From positions 1-41,552 of the forward strand of contig JAHHIK010000073.1 in assembly GCA_019358935.1 (NCBI GenBank): a DNA stretch of 41,552 nt. Direction: 5' to 3'. Below, in pieces: positions 5,377-33,469 of this stretch. A program made the position numbers and the translations under genes. Below the pieces are notes generated by a model. It ran no database searches, was not told where the DNA came from, and worked only from the letters and a program-made list of their open reading frames with translations. Origin of the DNA: Tolypothrix carrinoi HA7290-LM1. GTDB lineage: Bacteria; Cyanobacteriota; Cyanobacteriia; Cyanobacteriales; Nostocaceae. Positions within the stretch are counted from its first letter, which is position 1. Each line of letters starts with the position of its first letter.

Positions 5377-6225
5377 TTGAAAAATCAGCAATTGGGGAAT
5401 TGGCAAACGATAGTAGCCGGATTTTTAGCGGCAATAATTGTTATTATCAGCTTGAATGCTTTTATCATTATTAACCCAGGACAAGCAGCCGTGATTAGTA
5501 TCTTGGGTAAAGCCAGAGATGGTGCTTTAGTAGAAGGTATCCACCTGAAACCGCCTTTCATCTCAGTAATAGATGTGTATGATTTGACAGTGCAAAAATT
5601 TGAAGTGCCGGCAGAAAGTTCTACTAAGGATCTGCAAAATTTAACTGCGAGATTTGCGATCAACTTTCGTCTCGATCCCGTAAAGGTAGTAGAAGTAAGA
5701 AGGAAACAAGGAACTTTAGAGAATATAGTTTCAAAAATCATTGCTCCCCAGACACAAGAAGCGTTTAAAATAGCGGCTGCAAAAAGAACAGTAGAAGAAG
5801 CAATTACCAAAAGAACTGAGTTAAAAGAAGACTTTGATAATGCGTTAAGCGATCGCCTAGACAAATATGGAATAATAGTATTAGATACAAGTGTAGTTGA
5901 CTTAACCTTTTCGCCAGAATTTGCCAGAGCAGTTGAGGAAAAACAAATTGCGGAACAACGAGCGCAAAGAGCGGTCTACATAGCAAAAGAAGCCGAACAA
6001 GAAGCGCAAGCAGAAATTAATCGTGCCAAAGGCAAAGCCGAAGCTCAAAGACTCTTAGCAGAGACTCTCAAAGCTCAAGGAGGGCAATTGGTTCTACAAA
6101 AAGAAGCCATTGAAGCTTGGAAAACCGGTGGTGCTCAAATGCCCAAAGTCCTGGTTATGAGTGGAGATTCTAAGAGTAGCGTACCTTTCCTCTTCAATAT
6201 GGGCAATCTTCAAAATGAATCCTGA
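5377..6225 (+). CDS. Prohibitin/SPFH family protein
   Basis: N-terminal TM segment, SSTKDLQ, FSPEFARAVEEKQIAEQ coiled coil; TTG start after an AAGGAG RBS. Confidence 0.92.
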   Translation: MKNQQLGNWQTIVAGFLAAIIVIISLNAFIIINPGQAAVISILGKARDGALVEGIHLKPPFISVIDVYDLTVQKFEVPAESSTKDLQNLTARFAINFRLDPVKVVEVRRKQGTLENIVSKIIAPQTQEAFKIAAAKRTVEEAITKRTELKEDFDNALSDRLDKYGIIVLDTSVVDLTFSPEFARAVEEKQIAEQRAQRAVYIAKEAEQEAQAEINRAKGKAEAQRLLAETLKAQGGQLVLQKEAIEAWKTGGAQMPKVLVMSGDSKSSVPFLFNMGNLQNES

Positions 6226-6313
6226 TGTAAGGTAATGACCATCTAAAATTTACACAGGAGCGATCGTCAACTAAAATACAACCATAAACACCAAGGACAT
6301 AATAAACATATTT

Positions 6314-6730
6314 ATGTCAACACCCAATCACACGAATCTCACTGTCTCAGAAGCGAAAAAAATCCTGAATAAATTCAACTGTCTGGATATCGCACCTGTT
6401 GTCAAGCCATCAGAAAAAGTTTTAATCCGTCAGGCATTACTTTTGCTAACCAGCCTTTCTGATTATCAAATTTTAGGAATTTGCGCTGATACAGAAGAAG
6501 AAGGGATGCTTGCCACGAGAACTTATTCCCAAGCTTTGGGTTATGAAGTACCGAGTAATTTACCCCCAATTGAAGGTCCAGTTTACGTCAAATTAAACGG
6601 CAAAAACGGCTTGTGTTATCTCGATTCCTACGCAGGACATCATCGAGGCGTATTGGTGTCTTGCCAATCTTACAATGAAAAGGGAATCAACGAAATGTAT
6701 GGACATTTGCCCTTGGATTTATTTGTATAA
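6314..6730 (+). CDS. DUF1824 family protein
   Basis: SDYQILGICAD, GPVYVKLNG, RGVLVSCQ and YGHLPLDLF motifs. Confidence 0.8.
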   Translation: MSTPNHTNLTVSEAKKILNKFNCLDIAPVVKPSEKVLIRQALLLLTSLSDYQILGICADTEEEGMLATRTYSQALGYEVPSNLPPIEGPVYVKLNGKNGLCYLDSYAGHHRGVLVSCQSYNEKGINEMYGHLPLDLFV

Positions 6731-6742
6731 ACTTCATCAAAA

Positions 6743-6895
6743 GTAGGATGGGCAATGCTCATCCTACTCACTAATAACTTTCGTACAGACGTTCCACCGG
6801 AACGTCTCTACCGCTCCTCCTAACTCTTAACAACTAACTACTATCCAATAACTCTTAACTCCTAACTCCTAACTCCTAACTCTTAACTCCTAACC
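6743..6895. repeat. Two GTAG-type REP-like hairpins plus a TAACTCC/T heptamer tract
   Basis: gtaggatgggcaatgctcatcctac (6743-6767), gtacagacgttccaccggaacgtctctac (6783-6811), then a (taactcc)n tract. Confidence 0.75.
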
Positions 6896-6901
6896 AATTA
6901 C

Positions 6902-8806
6902 ATGAGTATTATTACATTACAATCAATCAATAAAGATTTTGGCATCAAAGAAATTTTAAAAGATGCCAGCTTTAGTCTTGATGCAACTGATAAAGTAGGC
7001 TTAATTGGCACTAACGGTTCTGGCAAATCAACATTATTAAAAATGATTGCCGGACTAGAAACGCTTGATAGCGGTCAAATTTTAGTTAATAATTCTAAAA
7101 TTATCTATCTTCCCCAGCAACCAGACTTAGACGAAAATCGCACAGTTTTAGAGCAAGTTTTTGCTGACAGCGGTGAACAAATGGCTTTGGTGCGCGAGTA
7201 TGAAGAACTTTCTGATAAATTAGCTCACAATTCAGAAGATAATCAGTTAATGTCCCGCTTGTCTGTAGTAATGCAGCAGATGGAAGCGACTGGTGCTTGG
7301 GAGTTAGAAACTAACGCCAAAATCATCCTGACAAAGTTAGGAATTTCCGACTTTAACGCGACTATCGGCACATTATCTGGAGGCTATCGCAAGCGCATTG
7401 CCTTAGCAACAGCTTTGCTCTCAGAACCGGATGTTTTACTCATGGATGAGCCGACAAACCATTTAGATGCTCTTTCTGTAGAATGGTTGCAAAGTTACTT
7501 AAATCGTTTTCGCGGCGCACTTTTATTAATAACTCACGATCGCTACTTTTTAGATCGCGTTACCAATCGTATCATAGAAATTGACCGAGGCGACATTTAC
7601 ACATACGCAGGTAACTACTCATACTATCTAGAAAAGAAAGCTTTAGCTGAAGAATCTGCTGTTAGCAGTCAACGCAAACATCAAGGTGTATTGCGACGCG
7701 AATTAGAATGGCTAAAAAAAGGACCCAAAGCCAGAAGTACAAAGCAAAGAGCGAGAATCGATCGCGTTCATGCGATGCAAGAAACTGAGTTTAAACAAAT
7801 TCAGGGTAAAGTAGATATTTCTACAGTTGGTCGTCGCATCGGCAAAAAAGTTATTGAACTAAATAATATATCCAAAGCATACAACGGACGCACTTTAATT
7901 AAAGATTTTACCTACAATTTTAGTCCAGAAGACCGCATCGGCATTATTGGTGGTAACGGTGCAGGTAAATCCACTTTAATGGATATTATCACCAAACGCA
8001 TTCAGCCAGATTCCGGGAATGTAGAAATTGGTTCTACAATTCACATCGGCTATTTTGACCAGCATTCGGAAGAATTACTCACAGCGTTAGACGAAAATCA
8101 GCGCGTAATTGACTATATCAAAGAAGAAGGAGAATTTGTCAAAATTTCTGACGGAACACAAATTACAGCTTCGCAAATGTTGGAGCGCTTTTTGTTTCCC
8201 GGAAACCAGCAATATTCACCAATTCATAAACTTTCTGGTGGTGAAAAACGACGTTTATTTTTGTTGCGTGTTCTCATGAGCGCACCTAACGTGTTGATTC
8301 TCGATGAACCGACAAACGATTTAGATGTGCAAACATTAGCAGTGCTAGAAGAATATTTAGAAGATTTCTCTGGCTGTGTAATTGTAGTTTCTCACGATCG
8401 CTACTTTTTAGACAGAACAATTGACAAAATTTTCGCTTTGGAAGATAACGGTAATTTACGTGAATATCCCGGTAACTACTCAATTTATCTCGACTACAAA
8501 AAAGCCGAAGAAACTGCACTACAACAAATTGCTCCTGCTAAAGAAAAGCCGAAAATAGATGCTGAACCGAAAAATACAGAGAATAAAAAGCGTCGCATAT
8601 CCACTTGGGAAAAGCGAGAATTTGAGCAATTGGAAGGGAAAATTGCTCAGTTAGAAGACGAGAAAGCAGAAGTAGAAAAAGCGTTGACAAACGTTGCACC
8701 AGGGAATTATACTCAAGTGCAGAAATTGTACGATCGAGTGGAAGAACTCAAGCAAGCGATCGATGTAGCGACTGAACGGTGGATGGAATTAGCAGAGATG
8801 GATTGA
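6902..8806 (+). CDS. ABC-F family ATPase (Uup-like)
   Basis: Two NBDs (GTNGSGKST and GGNGAGKST, LSGG, DEPTN), KARSTKQ linker, C-terminal coiled coil, no TM segments. Confidence 0.93.
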   Translation: MSIITLQSINKDFGIKEILKDASFSLDATDKVGLIGTNGSGKSTLLKMIAGLETLDSGQILVNNSKIIYLPQQPDLDENRTVLEQVFADSGEQMALVREYEELSDKLAHNSEDNQLMSRLSVVMQQMEATGAWELETNAKIILTKLGISDFNATIGTLSGGYRKRIALATALLSEPDVLLMDEPTNHLDALSVEWLQSYLNRFRGALLLITHDRYFLDRVTNRIIEIDRGDIYTYAGNYSYYLEKKALAEESAVSSQRKHQGVLRRELEWLKKGPKARSTKQRARIDRVHAMQETEFKQIQGKVDISTVGRRIGKKVIELNNISKAYNGRTLIKDFTYNFSPEDRIGIIGGNGAGKSTLMDIITKRIQPDSGNVEIGSTIHIGYFDQHSEELLTALDENQRVIDYIKEEGEFVKISDGTQITASQMLERFLFPGNQQYSPIHKLSGGEKRRLFLLRVLMSAPNVLILDEPTNDLDVQTLAVLEEYLEDFSGCVIVVSHDRYFLDRTIDKIFALEDNGNLREYPGNYSIYLDYKKAEETALQQIAPAKEKPKIDAEPKNTENKKRRISTWEKREFEQLEGKIAQLEDEKAEVEKALTNVAPGNYTQVQKLYDRVEELKQAIDVATERWMELAEMD

Positions 8807-19314: not shown

Positions 19315-19600
19315 GTCAACAAGAAGGGTGTAGGGGGTAGGGTGTAGGGTGTAGGGGGGAAGACGGCATTGGTCGAGGCGTGTGATTCCCCGACCAATGC
19401 AATCGTCCTAGAAGGACGGGGCTTGTGACCCACTGGTTGTTGGGGCTAGTCTTTCCCCACACCCGAAAGAAGGGGGTAGGGGGTAGGGGGTAGGGGGTAG
19501 GGAAGAAGAGATATTTCTTTCCCCTAACCAGGCAACCCCACACCCTTACACCCAATTCTTTCCCCCACACCCCACACCCCGCCCCAACGGGGCTTGGTCA
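19315..19600. mobile_element. Non-autonomous dispersed element, intron-free paralog of the intron host
   Basis: Begins gtcaacaagaagggtgtagg and ends gccccaacggggcttggtca, the same termini as 26330-28817; contains the hairpin cgtcctagaaggacg followed by gggcttgtgacc. Confidence 0.75.
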
Positions 19601-19826
19601 TATTTCATCAATTTCAATCGCTTTAGTCTAAGAAATTCGAGTCAAACCAGGTTGATAGTTTTTGATTTTATTTTTTTTAATTTGTCATAAATCTCGTTGT
19701 TCACCCAACTGATGACAAATGACATTTATCTGATGTGGAGCAATGCGGCAGTTGAATAAATTGACCGTTAATAAGTGTTTTTAGATATCTGTACAGTTAA
19801 TTGTAACTATTGCAAATGAATTTTTT

Positions 19827-22091
19827 ATGGATTTTTTTAAAACCATTAGTAAAAGTCTGATATTAGGTATTACCATAATTGTCTATACCCATACATCTGC
19901 TGCTGCTGTCACTATTGAGCAGACAAATTTTAGTGATAAGCAGACCGTTCAACCTACGAGTGAGATTAAGCTAAAACTTGATCGTCTGCCAAGTCCAAAT
20001 GAGGGAAGATTATCTATTTTTATTGGTCAGACTGATGTAACTTCGATGTTTCGGACGGTTGGCAATGAGTTAATTTACCAGCCAAAGAATATTCCCCTTC
20101 CTGTCGGTGAAACCAAAGTCATTGTTTATCTAGTAAAAGAAAATAATCAGTGGCAAGAAATTGCTCAACTACCGTTAAAAGTATCAGATCTGGCTGTAAA
20201 ACCGACAGATTCACAAGTCACTCAAGCTCCAACACAACAACAAAAACCACCACCACAGCCAACACAACAACAGTCTCAACGCGGACCATCACAATCAACA
20301 CAATCAACTCCAAGGGAAAAACCAACAACAAACCCCGCACAGCCAAACTCACAAGAAAGCAATACGTCATTGCGTCCTACCCTGACTCTGGAATCTCGGT
20401 TTTTAGAAGCACGCAGTGGAGAAATAGAACCACGTTCTACCTCTACCGAACTGACTTTTAAAGGAGACTTTAACCCGCAGGAAAGAATTGGGGATCTAGA
20501 TATTAAGGGTGTATTTAGTCTGTTCGGAACAACAATAGAGGAAAATGCCATTCGATTCCAGCAGCAGGGTCAGAACGCACGTAATCTTGATTTAGAAAAG
20601 TACGATATCGATTTAGCTTATGGTTCTACAACATTATCTTTGGGACACAATACTTACGGGAACCATAGGTTTTTGCTTAACAACATTAGCAATCGTGGAT
20701 TGTTACTCAACTCTCAATTAAGCGATCGCTTCGACATTACTCTGGCTACCACCACCGCTACAGATATCGTCGGGTTTGACAATATTTTTGGCTTAAACGA
20801 CTTAGATAACGACAACATCTCCGCTGCAATTGTTGGCTATCAGATAGTAAAAGGAAATCCTGATAATGATTCTAAAGGAGTTCGTTTAGAAGCAACTCTC
20901 ATAACTGCATCCCGCAACCCCGAACCTGACTTTAACCAGTTACAGGTGGTTGATGCAGAGGACAGTGATGGATTTGGATTGACATTAGTTGCCGAAGATA
21001 GTTCTGGTAGATTGCGCTTCAATGGGGGATTTGCCCGCAGCACCTTTACAAACCCCTCAAGTGAACGAGATTCTGAACTCACTGAAGGACTAGATATAGT
21101 ACCCGTAGTCCCAGCCACTGAAAATGCATACTTTTTAGAGGCAGAATACGATCTGGTGAAAAACGTGAACCTTGGGGGCGATCGCACCTTGAACCTAACC
21201 TTGAAAGCCACCCACGAACGCATAGATCCCTTATTTAACTCGATTGGTGCTAGTGTTACTCCCGATACATCGCAAACAGTAATATTACTAGAAGGGGTGA
21301 TTGCCGGGGCTAATCTGACATTAATACAGAATTGGAACGAAGATAACCTGGCAGATATTTCCACGACCCCAAAAAACAACAGACGCAACACAGCCTTTAA
21401 TCTAAACCTACCCCTGCAAACAGTATTCGCGGTGCAAAACCCCTTACTCCCCACATTGAGTTATTCCTTCACCAGAAACCGCAATTTTACAGCAAACTCT
21501 CCTGAACCGGTCAACCTTTTAAGCTCCGACTTGCTCACCACCACTCACACATTTGGTACCGCATGGAAAATTCAGAATTTAACTTTTGGCTATAACTTCT
21601 CCAGTACTTTCTCGGACAACCGTAGAATCAGCGGGGCAGCTGAGGTAGACAGTGAGCTAAATCAACAACCAGAAGATACTCAAGACTTTACCAATGAAAT
21701 TAACGTTGGGTGGCAAGCGACTCCTGGTTTGCGATTAGATTTGGGATATCAATGGACAAGCAGTAGAAGTCTAGTAACTAATATCACTCAATTTAGTAGT
21801 ATTCCAACTTTAGGAATAATGTGGCAGATTGACCCCAGCATGATGTTTATAGTAGACTTCAGCCGGAATGAAAACACTGACTCGATAAATCGGGCTTTCG
21901 TACGCGGTGATACCATGAGTGTAATCTTGGGTAAGACGTTCATAATTCCGGGTCCAGCGGGGGTAGAATTGCCCGCTAATGTTTCCTTACAATATGGATT
22001 TACCTCTAATAGCGATCGCGATCGTGAACTAAACCAATCTAGAGATGGCACGATTCACACCCTAACAGGTAACATTAGTATTAGTTTTTAA
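19827..22091 (+). CDS. Putative outer-membrane beta-barrel protein with an N-terminal Ig-like domain
   Basis: Signal peptide, Q/P/T-rich linker, alternating amphipathic strands, C-terminal ...GNISISF (terminal Phe). Confidence 0.65.
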   Translation: MDFFKTISKSLILGITIIVYTHTSAAAVTIEQTNFSDKQTVQPTSEIKLKLDRLPSPNEGRLSIFIGQTDVTSMFRTVGNELIYQPKNIPLPVGETKVIVYLVKENNQWQEIAQLPLKVSDLAVKPTDSQVTQAPTQQQKPPPQPTQQQSQRGPSQSTQSTPREKPTTNPAQPNSQESNTSLRPTLTLESRFLEARSGEIEPRSTSTELTFKGDFNPQERIGDLDIKGVFSLFGTTIEENAIRFQQQGQNARNLDLEKYDIDLAYGSTTLSLGHNTYGNHRFLLNNISNRGLLLNSQLSDRFDITLATTTATDIVGFDNIFGLNDLDNDNISAAIVGYQIVKGNPDNDSKGVRLEATLITASRNPEPDFNQLQVVDAEDSDGFGLTLVAEDSSGRLRFNGGFARSTFTNPSSERDSELTEGLDIVPVVPATENAYFLEAEYDLVKNVNLGGDRTLNLTLKATHERIDPLFNSIGASVTPDTSQTVILLEGVIAGANLTLIQNWNEDNLADISTTPKNNRRNTAFNLNLPLQTVFAVQNPLLPTLSYSFTRNRNFTANSPEPVNLLSSDLLTTTHTFGTAWKIQNLTFGYNFSSTFSDNRRISGAAEVDSELNQQPEDTQDFTNEINVGWQATPGLRLDLGYQWTSSRSLVTNITQFSSIPTLGIMWQIDPSMMFIVDFSRNENTDSINRAFVRGDTMSVILGKTFIIPGPAGVELPANVSLQYGFTSNSDRDRELNQSRDGTIHTLTGNISISF

Positions 22092-26442: not shown

Positions 26443-28732
26443 GTGCGGTTCGTTTCTATGAAACATAGTAACTAACTATGGGAATTAGAGTCCTTACACC
26501 GCCTTGAGTTCCTTGTAACTCCAAAAAAGAAAGTAAGGATAACTTCAATCCAGTGTGAGTGCGTCGAAATCATAGAGTAGACAAGCCTCACCCGCCAGGA
26601 GTAGTGTGATGCCAAATCTGCCCACACAGATGGAGAACAAACTCCAAAAGTGAAGCTGGGAACAGGACGAGGAAAACAAACCTGAGATGGGGGTAACTCG
26701 TATAGGTAGGTAGTCACGGTTAGGCATTAGCCGAACCTTCGGAAAAAGCGTCCAAAGCCCTCCAGCCAAACTCAAGGCTGGGTAACGATATACACCCGCA
26801 TCGCCGATGGATACAGCAGATGCAACTCTGGGTAATCGTGGGCGAAGTGAGGGAACCTAAAACTACAAAACAACTGGATTGGGGAACGAATAAAACGGCT
26901 CTTTCAACCTTCAATCCTTGAGATTGTGGAACCCTTAAATAAGGTTTAGCAGGTAGAGTTGGTAGGATTCACTCGAAAATCGGCGAACCAAGGACTCGCT
27001 GACAACTGGGTGAGGTTTACATAGAAAATGTCCAAATGTAGTAGAGAAGGTTATGACAACGGAGTTAAATCCAGTTGATAAATGGAAATCAATTCCCTGG
27101 CGTAAGCTGCGGAAAATTGTATTTCGCCTACAAGTTCGGATATTTAAGGCTCAAAAGAATGGAAACGCACGATTAGTGCGAAAACTTCAGAAACTTTTAT
27201 TAAGCTCCAAAGCCGCGAAGCTACTGGCTATCCGCCAAGTGACGCAGTTAAATATGGGGAAGAAAACCGCAGGGGTAGACGGCAAAAAAGCTCTCGAACC
27301 CGCCCAAAGATTAGCACTTTACGAAGTGTTGATTAAAAACTGGAAGCAATGGAAACACCAACCTCTTAAAAGAGTTTGGATTCCAAAAGCTGACGGAACA
27401 AAAAGGGGACTAGGAATTCCAACCATCGGCGATAGAGCTTATCAATGCCTTCTCAAATATGCTCTGGAACCCGCATCCGAAGCCGAGTTCAACGCCCATT
27501 CCTATGGGTTTAGACCTGGAAGAAGCACACGCGATGTCCAACAAGGAATCTTTAATCAACTTAAGACTAACGCCAAAGGTCTAAACAAAAGAATCCTGGA
27601 ACTAGATATCGAAAAATGTTTCGACAAGATTGACCACAAATTCCTAATGCAATCTGTCCAACTTCCCAGAGCAGCCAAACAAGGACTGTTCCGAGCCATT
27701 AAAGCTGGAGTCCGAGGAGAATTCCCGTCTTCAGTAACAGGAACCCCTCAAGGCGGAGTCATCAGTCCATTACTCGCAAACCTAGTCCTACATGGATTGG
27801 AAAATGTGGGATATGAATTGAGATACAAAGTTAAAAATGGCGGTACATATTTGGATGCACTAAAAGGATTCCGTTATGCGGATGACGTAGTGTATATTCT
27901 CAATCCTGAAGACGATGAAAATATCCTTAGAGAACGTATTGACCTATTCCTGAAAAAAAGAGGGTTAAAAGTAAAAGAAGCCAAAACCAAAGTAGTTAAA
28001 AGCACCGATGGTTTCGACTTTCTTGGGTGGAAATTTTGTATTAAACCCAATGGTAAATTCATCTCTACACCGAGTCAAAAATCCGTCAAAGGAATCAAGG
28101 CAAAAGTGAAAGAAGTCTTGAAAGATAGTCGATTCACCCTAGAACAACGTATCGATAAATGCGAAGCGGTAGTTCGTGGATGGAGAAATTACCATCGATT
28201 CTGCGATATGAGTCAACACGACCTATGGAGTTTAAACCACTGGGCTTGGAAATTCATTCGCAAACAAGGGAGATACGACCGATACCAAACCAACAGGGTT
28301 TTAAAGAAAGCATTTCCATCTGTAAAATGGGCAGCGTGTAGGTTTGTCAACGTTACTGGGGCAAAATCCCCCTTCGACGGTGACTTTGCGTACTGGTCAC
28401 AGAGAGAAAATGCTAATTACGACGGTATAACGGCTAGAATCCTGAAGAAACAGAATCACAAGTGCGCCCACTGCGGTCTAAGGTTCTATTCAGGTGACAT
28501 TGCAGAATTACACCATAAAGATGGCAACCATGCAAATTGGAAAGTCAATAATTTGGAAGTGCTGCATCGAGAATGTCATCTACATCAAACCAATCATGGC
28601 AAAAGATGCGAGTCCGAAAAACAGGTCAATCCTGATTTAGTAGATGTCAAGCTAGGAGCGTAGTGCGGTGAAAGTCGCACGCTACGTTCTGAACGGGAGG
28701 TGTCCCATAGCAATATGGGCATCGACCCTAAC
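26443..28732 (+). mobile_element. Group II intron (IIB, chloroplast-like class), apparently complete
   Basis: 5' GTGCG; domain V gAGCgtagtgcggtgaaagtcgcacgctacgttc (about 28656-28689); domain VI with bulged A and a 3' AAC end; EBS1 GGATAC at 26809-26814 and EBS2 AAGCCC at 26755-26760. Confidence 0.95.
27053..28663 (+). CDS. Group II intron reverse transcriptase/maturase with C-terminal HNH endonuclease
   Basis: RT0 W...VFRLQVRIFKA, TAGVDG, YGFRPGRS, LDIEKCFD, GTPQGGVISPLLAN, YADD, GFDFLG, GWRNY, CAHC...HHKDGNH...NN...LHRECH. Confidence 0.97.
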   Translation: MTTELNPVDKWKSIPWRKLRKIVFRLQVRIFKAQKNGNARLVRKLQKLLLSSKAAKLLAIRQVTQLNMGKKTAGVDGKKALEPAQRLALYEVLIKNWKQWKHQPLKRVWIPKADGTKRGLGIPTIGDRAYQCLLKYALEPASEAEFNAHSYGFRPGRSTRDVQQGIFNQLKTNAKGLNKRILELDIEKCFDKIDHKFLMQSVQLPRAAKQGLFRAIKAGVRGEFPSSVTGTPQGGVISPLLANLVLHGLENVGYELRYKVKNGGTYLDALKGFRYADDVVYILNPEDDENILRERIDLFLKKRGLKVKEAKTKVVKSTDGFDFLGWKFCIKPNGKFISTPSQKSVKGIKAKVKEVLKDSRFTLEQRIDKCEAVVRGWRNYHRFCDMSQHDLWSLNHWAWKFIRKQGRYDRYQTNRVLKKAFPSVKWAACRFVNVTGAKSPFDGDFAYWSQRENANYDGITARILKKQNHKCAHCGLRFYSGDIAELHHKDGNHANWKVNNLEVLHRECHLHQTNHGKRCESEKQVNPDLVDVKLGA

Positions 28733-28993: not shown

Positions 28994-29576
28994 ATGGCAG
29001 GTCAAACTTATACCGTCAAACAGGGCGACTTTCTATCATCAATCGCGCAGCAATTTTACGGCGATGGCAGTGAAGCGTCTTGGAGAAGAATTTACGAAGC
29101 GAATAAAGCCTTAATTGGACCTGACCCGACCCAGCTCAAACCAGGGATGGTACTTACCATTCCTGGGGTATCTGCCCCTCAGCCATCGAATAATATCGTC
29201 AACAGAGTTTTAGAACTCACCAATATAGAGCGCAGTAAAGCTGGTTTGTCACCACTAAGATTAAATCCGCAATTGACTGCGGCTGCACAAGCTCACAGCG
29301 AGAACATGGCACGGAGCAAGTCTATAAGTCACCAACTCCCAGGCGAGTTATCATGATAGCGATCGCATCTCACATGCAGGCTATAAATGGTCAGAAATTG
29401 CCGAGAACGTTGCAGCAGGACAGAAGACACCAGAACAAGCAGTCTCTATTTGGATCAACGAGGTTCCTCCCAATGATGCACATCGCAGAAACATTCTTAA
29501 TCCCAATTATCGGGAGCTTGGTGTTGGTTACTCCAACAACTATTGGACACAAGATTTCGGCTCCCCCGCATACTGA
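28994..29576 (+). pseudogene. Frameshifted LysM + CAP (SCP) domain gene
   Basis: LysM and the CAP N-half stop at 29356; the CAP C-half (SDRISHAGY...AENVAAGQ...HRRNILNPNYRELGVG...YWTQDFG) continues in another frame to TGA at 29576. Confidence 0.88.
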
Positions 29577-29613
29577 ACTTGATGTAAAAGTCAATTTCTC
29601 AAAGGAAAAAATC

Positions 29614-30411
29614 ATGTATACCACGCAAAATGCAAGTCAAACATATACCGTACAATCTGGTGACACCCTATTTATAATTGCCGAAAAAGTTTACCAAGAT
29701 GGTAATTTATGGTCTCTAATTTACGAAGCTAATCGCGGGATAATTGGAAATGATCCCAGTCAAATTCAACTGGGAATGGTACTTGTTATTCCCGAACAAA
29801 ATCAGTCTGGTAATCCTGGTACAAGCAAGGGAAATTTTCAAGATATGCTCGAAGCACTAGGAGCATTTGAATCAGGATTACCATCAGGAAATCCAAATCA
29901 ATACACCGTTGAAAATTCACTCGGTTTTATCGGCAAGTACCAATTTGGAGAAGCCCTACTGATTGACCTTGGCTACTACAAAGCCGATGTTTTCTATGGA
30001 CAACCTGGTGTTGACAAAAATTACTGGCGGGGTACATGGACAGGAAAGAAAGGTATTGATAGCAAAGCCAAATTCCAAAATTCTCCTGATGTCCAAGAAT
30101 TTGCAATTCGTGAAGCTTTTGCCCTCAACTGGAATCGTATCAACGATACGCTAAAAGGTCAAGGAAAGTCCATAAACGAATACCTCGGTCAGCAAAAGAC
30201 ATTTGATGATAATGGAGTGTCAAAAACAATAACAATCACCCTTTCTGGCATTCTCGCTGGGGCACACCTGCGCGGTCCTTATGGGTTAGCAGACCTTCTG
30301 CTCAAAAACGAAGTGTCTCACGATGAATTTGGCACTTCTATTCTGCGATACATAAATGAATATGGCGGTTATCAAGTTACGCCAGAAGATTTTCTCAATC
30401 CCGGTTCATAA
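29614..30411 (+). CDS. LysM + lysozyme-like domain protein (putative glycan hydrolase)
   Basis: AAGGA RBS; LysM YTVQSGDTLFIIA...IQLGMVLVIP; then LGAFESG...N..GFIGKYQFGE...Q...AGAHL, a lysozyme-fold pattern. Confidence 0.75.
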   Translation: MYTTQNASQTYTVQSGDTLFIIAEKVYQDGNLWSLIYEANRGIIGNDPSQIQLGMVLVIPEQNQSGNPGTSKGNFQDMLEALGAFESGLPSGNPNQYTVENSLGFIGKYQFGEALLIDLGYYKADVFYGQPGVDKNYWRGTWTGKKGIDSKAKFQNSPDVQEFAIREAFALNWNRINDTLKGQGKSINEYLGQQKTFDDNGVSKTITITLSGILAGAHLRGPYGLADLLLKNEVSHDEFGTSILRYINEYGGYQVTPEDFLNPGS

Positions 30412-31488
30412 CGAATTTTCTTTGCACTCTCTGCGCCAAAACTCAAGCAGTTGGTCTGGGCAAGGTTTGGCGCTGCCTTCGATTAAACTACTACCTTTAG
30501 TTTGGGATAGTCGATATTTTTCTTCATACTGCATAAATTGATTTCACTTTGCCTATTAACGATGTAGATGAAGAATTTATGTAGTAGCCGTTGCTTGCAC
30601 TCATATCTGCTGCGGTCTTATAACTTCATCCAACTCACATTAATAAAAAGAGAGCTTTCATGGCTGAAAACAACCTAGAATAAATCAAAATTTGTATTCA
30701 GATATTACCAGACATGTCTGAAGAAGCGCAAAGAAAAGCGATTGAAGAAAATCCGCAAAACGCAAAAACAGGCTTGAATTTTATCGAAAAATTTGGCGAC
30801 ACCGTTGAGTCATCGCGAATGGCACTTATCGCCGATAAAAAGTGGAAACCAGGTCGGACATTGCGCGTGCGCTTTTTGGATGGCGACCCCGTAGTTCACC
30901 AGAAAATTGCTCAGGTAGCACAGCAGTGGAGTCAATTTGGTAACATCAAGTTTCAGTTTGGCAACGATCCTAATGCAGAGATTCGCATCTCCTGTAAACT
31001 CGGTGCCGGTTCTTGGTCTTATCTTGGTACTGATGCCTTAAACATTCCCAAGAATCAGCCGACAATGAACTATGGATGGCTCAAACCCGATAGCGACGAT
31101 AGAGAGTATTTAAGAGTTGTAATGCATGAGTTTGGTCATGCTCTTGGTTGCATCCACGAACATCAACATCCACAAGCCGGAATTCCTTGGAATCGAGATG
31201 CTGTTTACCGCTACTATATGGGTGCGCCCAACAATTGGACTAAACAGGACGTAGATAACAATATATTCCAACTGTATAGTAAGAACATCACTCAATTCTC
31301 CCGCTATGACCCACAGTCAATCATGCACTATGCGGTTCCCAAGCAGTTAACGACCGGCGGCTTTGAGATTGGCTGGAATAACTATCCGTCAGCAACGGAC
31401 GAGTGATTAGTTAAAATATTTTTGCTCAACTCGCGCAAACCTTCTCAAGACGCGCTAGACTACTTCTAGTTGAGTTAAGTAGGTTTTG

Positions 31489-32136
31489 ATGCATCATGTC
31501 ACCCCCAAGGAAGCGGCTAAAATCCTTGGTGTCCACGTCTCCAGTCTGCGAAGGTGGGAAAACGAAGGAAAGCTTAAAGCAATCCGGACACCAGGAGGTC
31601 AAAGACGATTTGCCCTTGAAGAAGTCGAGAAAGCGGCAGGTGTCACCGGGACAGTTAGAACTGTTTGCTATGGACGAGTATCGACTCATTCCCAACAAGA
31701 CGATTTGCAACGACAGCTTGAACATTTACGCGCAAGATACCCAGAGGCTGAAATCATTTCAGAAACTGGAAGCGGACTCAATTTTAGGCGGAAAAAGTTC
31801 CTCGCGATTTTGGAACGAATTATCGACGGTGATATCCAACGTCTTGTCGTTGCCCACCCTGACCGACTTGTTAGATTCGGAATCGAATTGGTTAAATGGT
31901 TATGCCAGAAATTTCAGTGTGAACTCGTGGTTCTCAATGACCGCAAGCTCAGTCCAGAGCAAGAACTCGTACAAGATATGTTGTCCATCATCTACTGTTT
32001 TAGTTCAAGGCTTTACGGACTTAGAAAATACTCAAAACAAGTCAAAGAAGATTTACAAAAAGAAAACCCGTCACTCGTCGTCTCAATCGACAAAGCCTCA
32101 ACCGAACAGTGTGCAGAAAATCAGGCTATATCCTAG
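31489..32136 (+). CDS. tnpA: IS607 transposase (MerR-type HTH plus serine recombinase)
   Basis: EAAKILGV...LRRWENEGKL...RTPGGQRR, YGRVST (catalytic Ser), GSGLNFRR, DRLVRFG, ELVQDML...FSSRLYG. Confidence 0.96.
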   Translation: MHHVTPKEAAKILGVHVSSLRRWENEGKLKAIRTPGGQRRFALEEVEKAAGVTGTVRTVCYGRVSTHSQQDDLQRQLEHLRARYPEAEIISETGSGLNFRRKKFLAILERIIDGDIQRLVVAHPDRLVRFGIELVKWLCQKFQCELVVLNDRKLSPEQELVQDMLSIIYCFSSRLYGLRKYSKQVKEDLQKENPSLVVSIDKASTEQCAENQAIS

Positions 32137-33268
32137 CAAGGAATTGCACAAAGTTTGGAAGCGCTGGCTAGCTCAGTACCGCTATTACTACAACGAAACT
32201 ATCAGCTTACTTCGTTGTTTTGATAGAGTTGAAAAACTATCTGCTGAAACCTTAGATAAGATGTTACAGCGCTTAGAGAATGCCCCAGACTGGGTAAAAA
32301 CAATACCAGGTCATCAGCGCCAAGAAGCCTGTTTTGAGGCTTACGACGCATTTAAACGAGCTAAAAAAGATGGAGGTTTTGCTAAGTTCAAATCTGTTAA
32401 ATCTACCAGTCAAGCGATACAGTTTAAAGTTGGTAATTTTAAAAATGGTACGTGGTATTGTAACACAACTAAAGGCTTGAAATTCACTACGATTGGTCAA
32501 TCACATCCAAACCAATGTGAATACGGTACAGAGCTTGTATACCGCTGTGGTAAATGGTTTGGGTGTTTTCCGTGTGTAGAAGAAGTTGCGACGACTGGGA
32601 GCGACCGGGTAATTGCACTTGACCCTGGTAATCGCACTTTCTTAACTGGTTTTGATGGAGAAAACGTTTTAGAGATTGGCAAGGGAGACATTGGACGCAT
32701 ACAAAGATTGTGTCAACACCTTGACAACCTAATAAGCCGTTCTACTAAGGTCAAAGCCCACCAACGTAGAAAAATGCGTCTTGCCGCAAACCGTGCTAGA
32801 GAAAAAATTCAAGACCTAATTAAGGATTTGCATAAGAAGGCTACCAATCTGTTAGTTAATTCCTACAAAACAATCTTTCTTCCAACTTTTGATTCTAGCC
32901 AGATGGTAATTAAAAAGAGAAGCGGAAAGAAACGCAGGATTAACAGCAAGTCAGTGCGCCAAATGTTAACCCTTTCCCATTACCGCTTTGAACAACATCT
33001 CAAACAAGCAGCGTTAAAAAAAGGCGTGTTAGTTGTACTTTGCAACGAATCTTACACGTCTAAAACCTGTGGTAGTTGCGGTCATATTCACCATAAGCTT
33101 GGTGGTTCCAAAATCTTTAAATGCCTACATTGCGGCGCTCAAATTTCCCGCGATGTTAATGGCGCACGTAACATTATGCTACGTGCTTTGCAGGCAACTG
33201 CCTTCACCGTAACGCACGATTCTTTGGTGCTGTCGGATGCGTCCGACTTGACGGGAAGCGGTAGTTAA
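32111..33268 (+). CDS. tnpB: RNA-guided endonuclease TnpB, pro-Fanzor-like; start uncertain because the frame is open from 31496
   Basis: KIRLYP, ALDPG (RuvC-I), IFLPTF, NESYTSKTCGSCG...CLHC zinc finger, RDVNGARNI (RuvC-III). Confidence 0.92.
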   Translation: MQKIRLYPSKELHKVWKRWLAQYRYYYNETISLLRCFDRVEKLSAETLDKMLQRLENAPDWVKTIPGHQRQEACFEAYDAFKRAKKDGGFAKFKSVKSTSQAIQFKVGNFKNGTWYCNTTKGLKFTTIGQSHPNQCEYGTELVYRCGKWFGCFPCVEEVATTGSDRVIALDPGNRTFLTGFDGENVLEIGKGDIGRIQRLCQHLDNLISRSTKVKAHQRRKMRLAANRAREKIQDLIKDLHKKATNLLVNSYKTIFLPTFDSSQMVIKKRSGKKRRINSKSVRQMLTLSHYRFEQHLKQAALKKGVLVVLCNESYTSKTCGSCGHIHHKLGGSKIFKCLHCGAQISRDVNGARNIMLRALQATAFTVTHDSLVLSDASDLTGSGS

Positions 33269-33325
33269 TCAACTTTAATCGGTTTGATTAGCTTAAAAGT
33301 TGCACAAACAGTTCATCGCTCAGAT
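33180..33325 (+). ncRNA. Predicted TnpB omega/reRNA (right-end scaffold plus flanking guide); 5' limit unknown
   Basis: Inferred from the general TnpB architecture; hairpins gtcggatgcgtccgac and aacttt...aaagtt lie just before the right end. Confidence 0.45.
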
Positions 33326-33469
33326 GTATCCTCTGCCCAAGACTGGTGGATAAACCGCTTCACAGGGGAAAAGGGGAAAGGGGAAAGGGGAAAGGGTAAG
33401 AAATCCCCCTGCTCCCCCTTGTCCTCCTTGTCCTCCTTGTCTCCTTGTCTTTTTGTCTTTTGAAGTACC

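Follow-up and report, generated by a model that had tools for sequence, protein, structure and literature searches.

A cyanobacterial pro-Fanzor IS607 element in which tnpB overlaps nearly all of tnpA and may encode a counterpart of the Fanzor2 N-terminal domain

Organization of the IS607-family element and its insertion site

The window analyzed here comprises 41,552 nucleotides of Tolypothrix carrinoi HA7290-LM1 (contig JAHHIK010000073.1 of assembly GCA_019358935.1, positions 1-41,552, forward strand) and carries an IS607-family element that splits a peptidase gene. The following features make up the locus:

30714..31400, + strand: host astacin-like (M12A) peptidase gene, split by the insertion (Pfam Astacin)
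31397..31400, + strand: target motif GGAC (family consensus RGAC) to the left of the element, with the last two bases, AC, as crossover core
31401..33305, + strand: IS607-family element of about 1.9 kb without inverted repeats; its right end is the second AC core (33304-33305)
31401..31488, + strand: left end of the element, holding the Shine-Dalgarno-like sequence AAGTAGG (31477-31483)
31489..32136, + strand: tnpA, an IS607 serine recombinase of 215 aa (NF033518, 199 bits at a cut-off of 110; Pfam Resolvase and MerR)
31496..33268, + strand: tnpB, encoding a pro-Fanzor of 590 aa in the full frame; the first 641 nt overlap tnpA and are read in +1 relative to it
33194..33305, + strand: predicted omega-RNA scaffold core, overlapping the 3' end of tnpB (folding z -3.2)
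33306..33325, + strand: predicted guide in the right flank, starting with the first base past the conserved end, length by analogy

The limits of the element are set where sequence similarity, both to relatives and to the C43 and C178 copies, begins and ends, opening after RGAC and closing at GTTGCAC, and the junction fits the empty sites. RGAC was found in all 21 distinct and correctly anchored left junctions (one further row was mis-anchored, and GAC had been fixed in the pattern beforehand). An empty site with a single AC is present in two genomes of the same genus (L228 and L230), where the 244-aa peptidase gene is intact, and a third genome has the same junction as judged by BLAST. The final 15 codons and the stop of the split gene lie at 33306-33353. 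Based on junctions and empty sites, the element is assigned to 31401-33305, with AC as its core and RGAC as the predicted TAM. The claim of an earlier sequence-only reading that a guide can be defined holds as well, the guide beginning at 33306 as set by the conserved right end and the empty sites.

The element shows the traits of IS607, namely an HTH-first serine recombinase, lack of terminal inverted repeats and crossover at a dinucleotide core. TnpA consists of a MerR-type HTH and a resolvase domain and its gene is intact. The core is GG in most IS607 members (PMC13565253, excerpt) and is given as GG for ISXfa1 (PMC10711439, excerpt), whereas it is AC within RGAC here and in this clade; other clades seem to end in AG. 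The left end is conserved across the close clade, and AAGTAGG, which precedes the ATG codons of tnpA and tnpB by 5 and 12 nt, respectively, presumably functions as a Shine-Dalgarno sequence. A promoter scan of 31380-31800 returned a single 9/12 match that is not meaningful. Further, TTAA/CTCAA-like words recur by eye at a spacing of about 11 bases in 31405-31480 and are possibly TnpA binding sites.

Besides the copies on C43 and C178, which share 80-82% DNA identity with the element, a distant copy is found on C80, and the +1 frame over tnpA is open in all three. The C178 copy (G000, about 5900-7700) has an intact tnpA and a tnpB stopped near codon 315. The C80 copy (G000, about 19500-21200) encodes a distant pro-Fanzor of 35% identity with the same +1 overlap and is missing the zinc-finger cysteines after the relocated Glu, a loss common to several relatives. 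No excision joint of the element was found among the contigs of two DNA runs, a result that does not speak against excision; one joint listed in them differs at 11 letters and probably stems from a sister copy. The surroundings encode a group II intron-type reverse transcriptase/maturase (27053-28663) and two LysM-domain proteins adjoining the peptidase (28994-30411). Low-complexity short repeats, first purine-rich and then pyrimidine-rich, are located just outside the element at 33363-33446.

Catalytic motifs and family placement of TnpB

All residue numbers refer to the 590-aa frame. Three segments hold the catalytic residues:

32621..32629, + strand: RuvC-I DPG (D376-P377-G378), aligned with D324 of ApmFz2, invariant in 47/47
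33047..33133, + strand: relocated RuvC-II Glu E518, aligned with E467 of ApmFz2, and C4 zinc finger (C525, C528, C543, C546)
33152..33154, + strand: RuvC-III Asp D553, aligned with D501 of ApmFz2, invariant in 141/141

The catalytic site corresponds to what the sequence-only reading had described. RuvC-I is DPG (D376-P377-G378) and not DLG, the canonical RuvC-II position is devoid of Glu (I460-F-L-P-T-F465) and RuvC-III is intact (R552-D553-V-N-G-A-R-N-I). The alternative Glu, E518 (codon at 33047), is invariant in 141/141 sequences and is separated by six residues from the cysteine that opens the zinc finger, C525. D376/E518/D553 align by sequence with the tested triad D324/E467/D501 of the mimivirus Fanzor2 ApmFz2 (PDB ID: 9b0l), on which an AlphaFold2 model built from 141 sequences superposes.

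The pro-Fanzor identity proposed from these motifs is likewise borne out. By both sequence (E 3e-25 with a single query, 2.5e-56 with a 47-sequence profile) and fold, 9b0l is the best PDB match, the protein fits the regular expression that Yoon et al. apply to pro-Fanzors and Fanzors, and close relatives are labelled as pro-Fanzors in Table S5 of that work (PMC10711439, cited here and below from excerpts of text and supplement). Nearly identical members of the family in these tables are WP_243902262.1, WP_015210834.1 and QOV23107.1; among the relatives shown (5 of 15 places), three carry the pro-Fanzor label and all five begin at the core. A phylogeny, the check that had been suggested, was run as a quick tree of 73 rows without named Fanzor2s and separates 53 DPG-clade rows, including giant-virus GVMAG contigs, from 20 canonical TnpBs (SH-aLRT 99); the protein groups with the giant-virus Fanzor2-like proteins. 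The combination of DPG and relocated Glu occurs in less than 1% of TnpB homologs (PMC10711439), and the 14 other TnpBs recovered from this genome by a filter all have D-hydrophobic-G together with the canonical upstream Glu. The element also encodes an IS607 TnpA (NF033518 above cut-off) and resides in a bacterial genome, and of the 47 loci found with the core query, 46 carry a cyanobacterial name or come from a cyanobacterial genus. Judged by its sequence, the protein is a pro-Fanzor. It shares DPG, relocated Glu, zinc finger, IS607 TnpA partner and cyanobacterial relatives with the pro-Fanzors of Yoon et al. (PMC10711439). Signature and family are already published, and the unusual feature is the overlap described below.

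The overlap of tnpA and tnpB

The frame of tnpB is open from 31490, and its ATG at 31496 lies 7 nt after that of tnpA; 641 nt are therefore part of two frames, tnpB being written in +1 over almost the whole of tnpA. The sequence-only reading had placed the 5' limit at 32111 and described a compact nuclease. This limit proved wrong, as it misses 205 N-terminal codons overlapping tnpA, and the open frame encodes 590 aa and not 385 aa. Because the frame is open to 31490 and the GTG at 32111 is poorly kept (6 of 17 close loci), the gene differs from the compact 385-aa ORF. A frameshifted TnpA-TnpB fusion confined to this copy was considered as the source of the 590-aa ORF and rejected, tnpA being intact in its own frame and other copies being alike. 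The overprinted part can be divided into two segments:

31496..31792, + strand: TnpB residues 1-99, a basic leader predicted to be disordered, coextensive with the tnpA HTH and the first part of the TnpA catalytic domain, dispensable in some lineages
31793..31978, + strand: TnpB residues 100-161, the overprinted folded module (FW106...L117-S-L-P120-T...N143-S-W-F146)

Stop codons were counted in a set of 150 sequences that was reduced to 108 with full-length tnpA and, after removal of those more than 90% alike, to 67 elements, comprising 54 DPG elements and 13 others (5 canonical TnpB, 8 unclassed). Over tnpA residues 45-185, none of the 54 DPG elements, whose TnpAs are 38-90% identical, has a single stop in the +1 frame, compared with 492 expected from synonymous recoding, whereas the +2 frame holds 571 stops vs 628 expected. 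Each of the 13 other IS607 tnpA genes, by comparison, contains 6-20 stops when read in +1. As many loci had been found with the long protein, unbiased locus sets were checked as well. With a core-only query (47 loci), all 30 loci with full tnpA have zero +1 stops, and with a TnpA-family query (17 loci) only two do, both of them pro-Fanzor-type. Of 79 viral loci, 45 have a full tnpA; in all of these 45, the final 85 codons of the match are free of +1 stops, and in 43 the overlap is at least 300 nt. It should be noted that relatives are non-independent samples in these counts, with the pattern covering the whole clade. Canonical IS607 elements (ISXfa1, CboIStron, ISFba1 and the C50 copy in this genome) also have tnpA upstream of tnpB, dinucleotide crossover and no inverted repeats, but differ in a D-hydrophobic-G RuvC-I, a canonical Glu where classable, a gene overlap of at most 25 nt and the presence of 6-20 +1 stops.

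Individual TnpB residues leave a mark on tnpA. W145 is found in 52/52 elements and holds codon 147 of tnpA to G at its silent third position; W106 (50 of 52) and L117 (51 of 52) likewise each hold constant a third base, and these bases are variable in controls. Identity at fourfold sites is 0.68 over tnpA 126-150, whereas the TnpB core has 0.34-0.37 and controls have 0.27.

Elements that have lost tnpA provide a view of the TnpB frame on its own. In ten such phage elements, TnpB residues 1-99 are deleted, the block shared with the tnpA-bearing sister L213 resumes just before the first motif and the former tnpA frame contains 3-12 stops. Read as TnpB, the overprinted segment of these tnpA-less elements has a dN/dS of 0.24 and the core one of 0.07 (45 non-independent pairs), and the most variable codon position is 3, compared with 2 where tnpA is intact. 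Separate tnpA losses with retention of the motif are seen in L178 and L192. Among tnpA-less viral loci, 9 of 20 score below 30 bits, three of these being cut off or broken, and L187 and L189 have no clear motif. The phage contigs L209-L226 appear as non-autonomous derivatives in which internal deletions fuse the left end to the start of the overprinted module; further partial element copies are located near L209.

These data indicate that the overlap is under selection and that both frames are constrained at the sequence level. It is hardly credible that TnpB is the 385-aa database protein and that codon choice in tnpA, or a constraint acting on RNA or DNA, left the frame open upstream as a by-product. 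The protein collection does list this locus only in the 385-aa form, the 590-aa form being absent, and pro-Fanzors have been described as shorter than Fanzor2 (Yoon et al., PMC10711439). However, such a by-product is at odds with zero against 492 expected stops and controls full of stops, with the poor conservation of the GTG and with purifying selection in the TnpB frame after tnpA loss, where the variable codon position switches from 2 to 3. According to the supplement of PMC10711439, pro-Fanzors are shorter and have no N-terminal region, and the entries there begin at the core; here, the frame runs 205 codons upstream through tnpA and the 590-aa open frame includes an N-terminal domain. The short published pro-Fanzors look like an annotation artefact and not like a family difference.

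Within the long frame, the ATG at 31496 is the likeliest TnpB start on sequence grounds, and translation of the long form is what we infer from the constraint. The base that creates this AUG is present in 31 of 33 elements with the frame open from there (background 59%), counted among elements whose tnpA opens with a Tyr/His-Val pair, itself found in 37/52. An ATG, GTG or TTG of some kind near the core start exists in 26/52 elements. The start varies between lineages: of the 51 elements for which a start could be guessed, 12 have a frame that does not open until 52-94 nt past the start of tnpA. This variation, with no near ATG in L027 and L099 and no tnpA start assigned in L005, would also suit a scenario in which the N-terminal domain is real but TnpB is made by +1 ribosomal frameshifting from tnpA, with a TnpA-head/TnpB fusion as product, or by initiation inside the frame, for example at M60 (31673). 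The long spacing of 12 nt between the Shine-Dalgarno-like site and the 31496 ATG and the predicted disorder of residues 1-99 point in the same direction. Nevertheless, we regard this scenario as unlikely: +1 stops are depleted over the tnpA HTH too (18 vs 80 expected, none in 42/54), the AUG-making base is kept in nearly all elements counted and the M60 codon is missing from the C43 copy. At the other end of the overlap (32039-32110), some lineages have an in-frame insertion of about 20 codons, which is strongly basic in the TnpB frame and located where ApmFz2 has a basic thumb.

Long overlapping genes born by overprinting are known in viruses and bacteria, the younger frame being taxonomically restricted and partly disordered. 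The present locus shares with them that one DNA stretch would specify two proteins. It differs in that the overlap is same-strand, spans about 640 nt and extends from cyanobacteria to giant viruses, and in that a domain with a solved counterpart is added to an existing enzyme. For bacteria, there are few records of same-strand overlaps that are both long and conserved. Gilbert and Cordaux mention, in the excerpt available, IS607 with two overlapping ORFs and a 100-aa N-terminal insertion in one amoebal ORFB. The word "overlap" is absent from the main text and supplement of PMC10711439 in a term search of the parts available. No published description of the tnpA/tnpB overlap was found in a literature search that also took in excerpts of PMC10530073, PMC3673617, PMC3627910, 10.1101/2023.11.20.567912, PMC10691335 and PMC12923547, subscription papers, bioRxiv supplements and ISfinder being outside its reach. 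As far as this search extended, the family is known and the architecture unpublished.

The overprinted domain, its Fanzor2 counterpart and the omega-RNA

The AlphaFold2 model assigns pLDDT values below 50 to residues 1-99, which have a K+R fraction of 0.19, and of 74-86 to two motif blocks within residues 100-161. Residues 102-570 of the model align with 53-518 of 9b0l (421 residues, Z 25.9, rmsd 3.9, about 24% identity), while alignments of other TnpB and Cas12f chains to the model begin near residue 201; the core can account for at most about 370 of the 421 residues. Residues 53-130 of ApmFz2 form a domain unseen in other TnpB structures (Schargel et al., PMC11832414, cited here and below from excerpts). 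As the model aligns from residue 102 and 9b0l from residue 53, the overprinted part would be the counterpart of this Fanzor2 N-terminal domain (RuvC-R). ApmFz2 is the closest match in sequence and fold and has the same triad arrangement; its N-terminal domain (53-130) aligns with residues from 102 here, with N82-S83-W84 corresponding to N143-S144-W145 and D397/K401 to D444/K448. It differs in being viral, in its TAM (GGG) and in its 247-nt omega-RNA, compared with a predicted core of about 110 nt here (PMC11832414). The parts of PMC11832414 available treat the N-terminal domain as unique to Fanzor2 and draw no link to tnpA.

At the sequence level, the two motifs of the overprinted module recur in the same order in ApmFz2 (W68-I-P-T71 and N82-S-W84). 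A domain-only profile did not find 9b0l in the PDB at E up to 10, with only four unrelated weak matches, so sequence homology to ApmFz2 relies on two short collinear motifs together with the model. Likeness among tnpA-bearing elements is not independent evidence, because about 48 of the 110 domain-profile bits derive from the TnpA protein sequence alone (the profile includes many real rows). Canonical IS607 tnpA genes read in the +1 frame score a median of 22 bits against the domain profile, which weakens similarity as evidence yet fits an origin from that frame.

A real overlap could also coexist with an ApmFz2 domain that is not its descendant, through convergent packing, or with a domain that came from elsewhere and had tnpA fitted over it later. 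The failure of the domain-only profile to reach 9b0l and the different motif spacing, 25 residues here vs 14 in ApmFz2, would be expected in that case. Set against this are intermediates with shortened inter-motif spacers (the tnpA-less L192 and L177), one or both motifs in Fanzor2s of Naegleria, glomeromycete fungi, yeasts, Klebsormidium and mimiviruses (selected rows of PMC10711439), the alignment of the model's N-terminal part with the 9b0l domain, the weak score that canonical tnpA already reaches in the +1 frame and the absence of any Pfam match for the domain in 55/55 members when the tnpA frame belongs to a widespread family. Taken together, these points make both variants very unlikely.

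The predicted omega-RNA scaffold is closed by a long-range stem (33194-33198 with 33299-33303) that is paired in 100% of cells in 22 sequences and has two-sided changes at 4 of 5 pairs, a count that leans toward structure because the ends of non-AC-clade elements were partly picked by the same pairing. The outer stem pairs match the G(-3)/C(-2) pairs of the ApmFz2 omega-RNA, which are contacted by N82, S83, D397 and K401 (PMC11832414). Over 20 bases, the predicted guide differs at 2-3 positions from the empty-site sequence in relatives, and the rest of the genome contained no RGAC+guide site when 12, 16 or 20 bases of the guide were used. Rfam returned no relevant family for the right end, with 7 of 8 weak matches falling on the low-complexity repeat outside the element. 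Right ends (L018, L021, L025, L082 and others) terminate in AC in one clade and in AG in others, and this dinucleotide switches together with the second pair of the omega-RNA stem.

We consider it very probable that the locus is an autonomous pro-Fanzor IS607 element with dual-coded tnpA and tnpB, whose N-terminal domain was born by overprinting and passed to Fanzor2. TnpA would move the element by crossover at the AC core in RGAC sites; junctions and an empty site are seen here, and the chemistry is taken by analogy from known IS607. TnpB would be read in the +1 frame as a 590-aa protein, most likely from the ATG 7 nt after that of tnpA. Residues 1-99 would form a disordered leader and residues 100-161 would, as modeled, fold onto RuvC as in Fanzor2, with Asn-Ser of the module possibly contacting the terminal omega-RNA base pairs as the matching Fanzor2 residues do. 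By analogy, TnpB and the right-end/flank RNA may then cut the RGAC+guide sites that arise on excision, leading to restoration of the element, as described for IS607/IS605 systems (PMC13565253, excerpt).

The tnpA frame is probably the older one, because it belongs to a widespread family, whereas the new frame is without Pfam match in 55/55 members; with tnpA as the older, widespread frame, the N-terminal domain would have arisen by overprinting. That the hidden part matches the front domain of Fanzor2 suggests a domain born inside another gene, which would have been carried into eukaryotic Fanzor2s and survived the loss of tnpA there. With reasonable confidence, we propose that the Fanzor2-defining domain, and possibly a basic leader that became a nuclear localisation signal, originated de novo in the tnpA +1 frame before the pro-Fanzor/Fanzor2 split. 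In the same proposal, two AUGs 7 nt apart behind one ribosome-binding site would set the ratio of excising enzyme to restoring nuclease, with tnpA almost wholly nested in the nuclease gene.

The origin of a domain of an RNA-guided nuclease would be traceable here through an ancestral frame, an overprinted frame, natural deletions that freed the domain and a solved counterpart. The database model of pro-Fanzors would be corrected accordingly: the annotated 380-400-aa forms are probably missing a segment that makes the RuvC fold complete and is in contact with the guide scaffold, and screens cloning them may for that reason have tested truncated proteins. The locus lends itself directly to testing, with RGAC as predicted TAM and with predictions for the scaffold end and the guide. 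Finally, GAQ91406.1 of Klebsormidium nitens (Table S3 of PMC10711439, excerpt) has a TnpA-like HTH at its start followed by the overprinted motif, a sequence arrangement which suggests that the overlap also exists in an algal genome.
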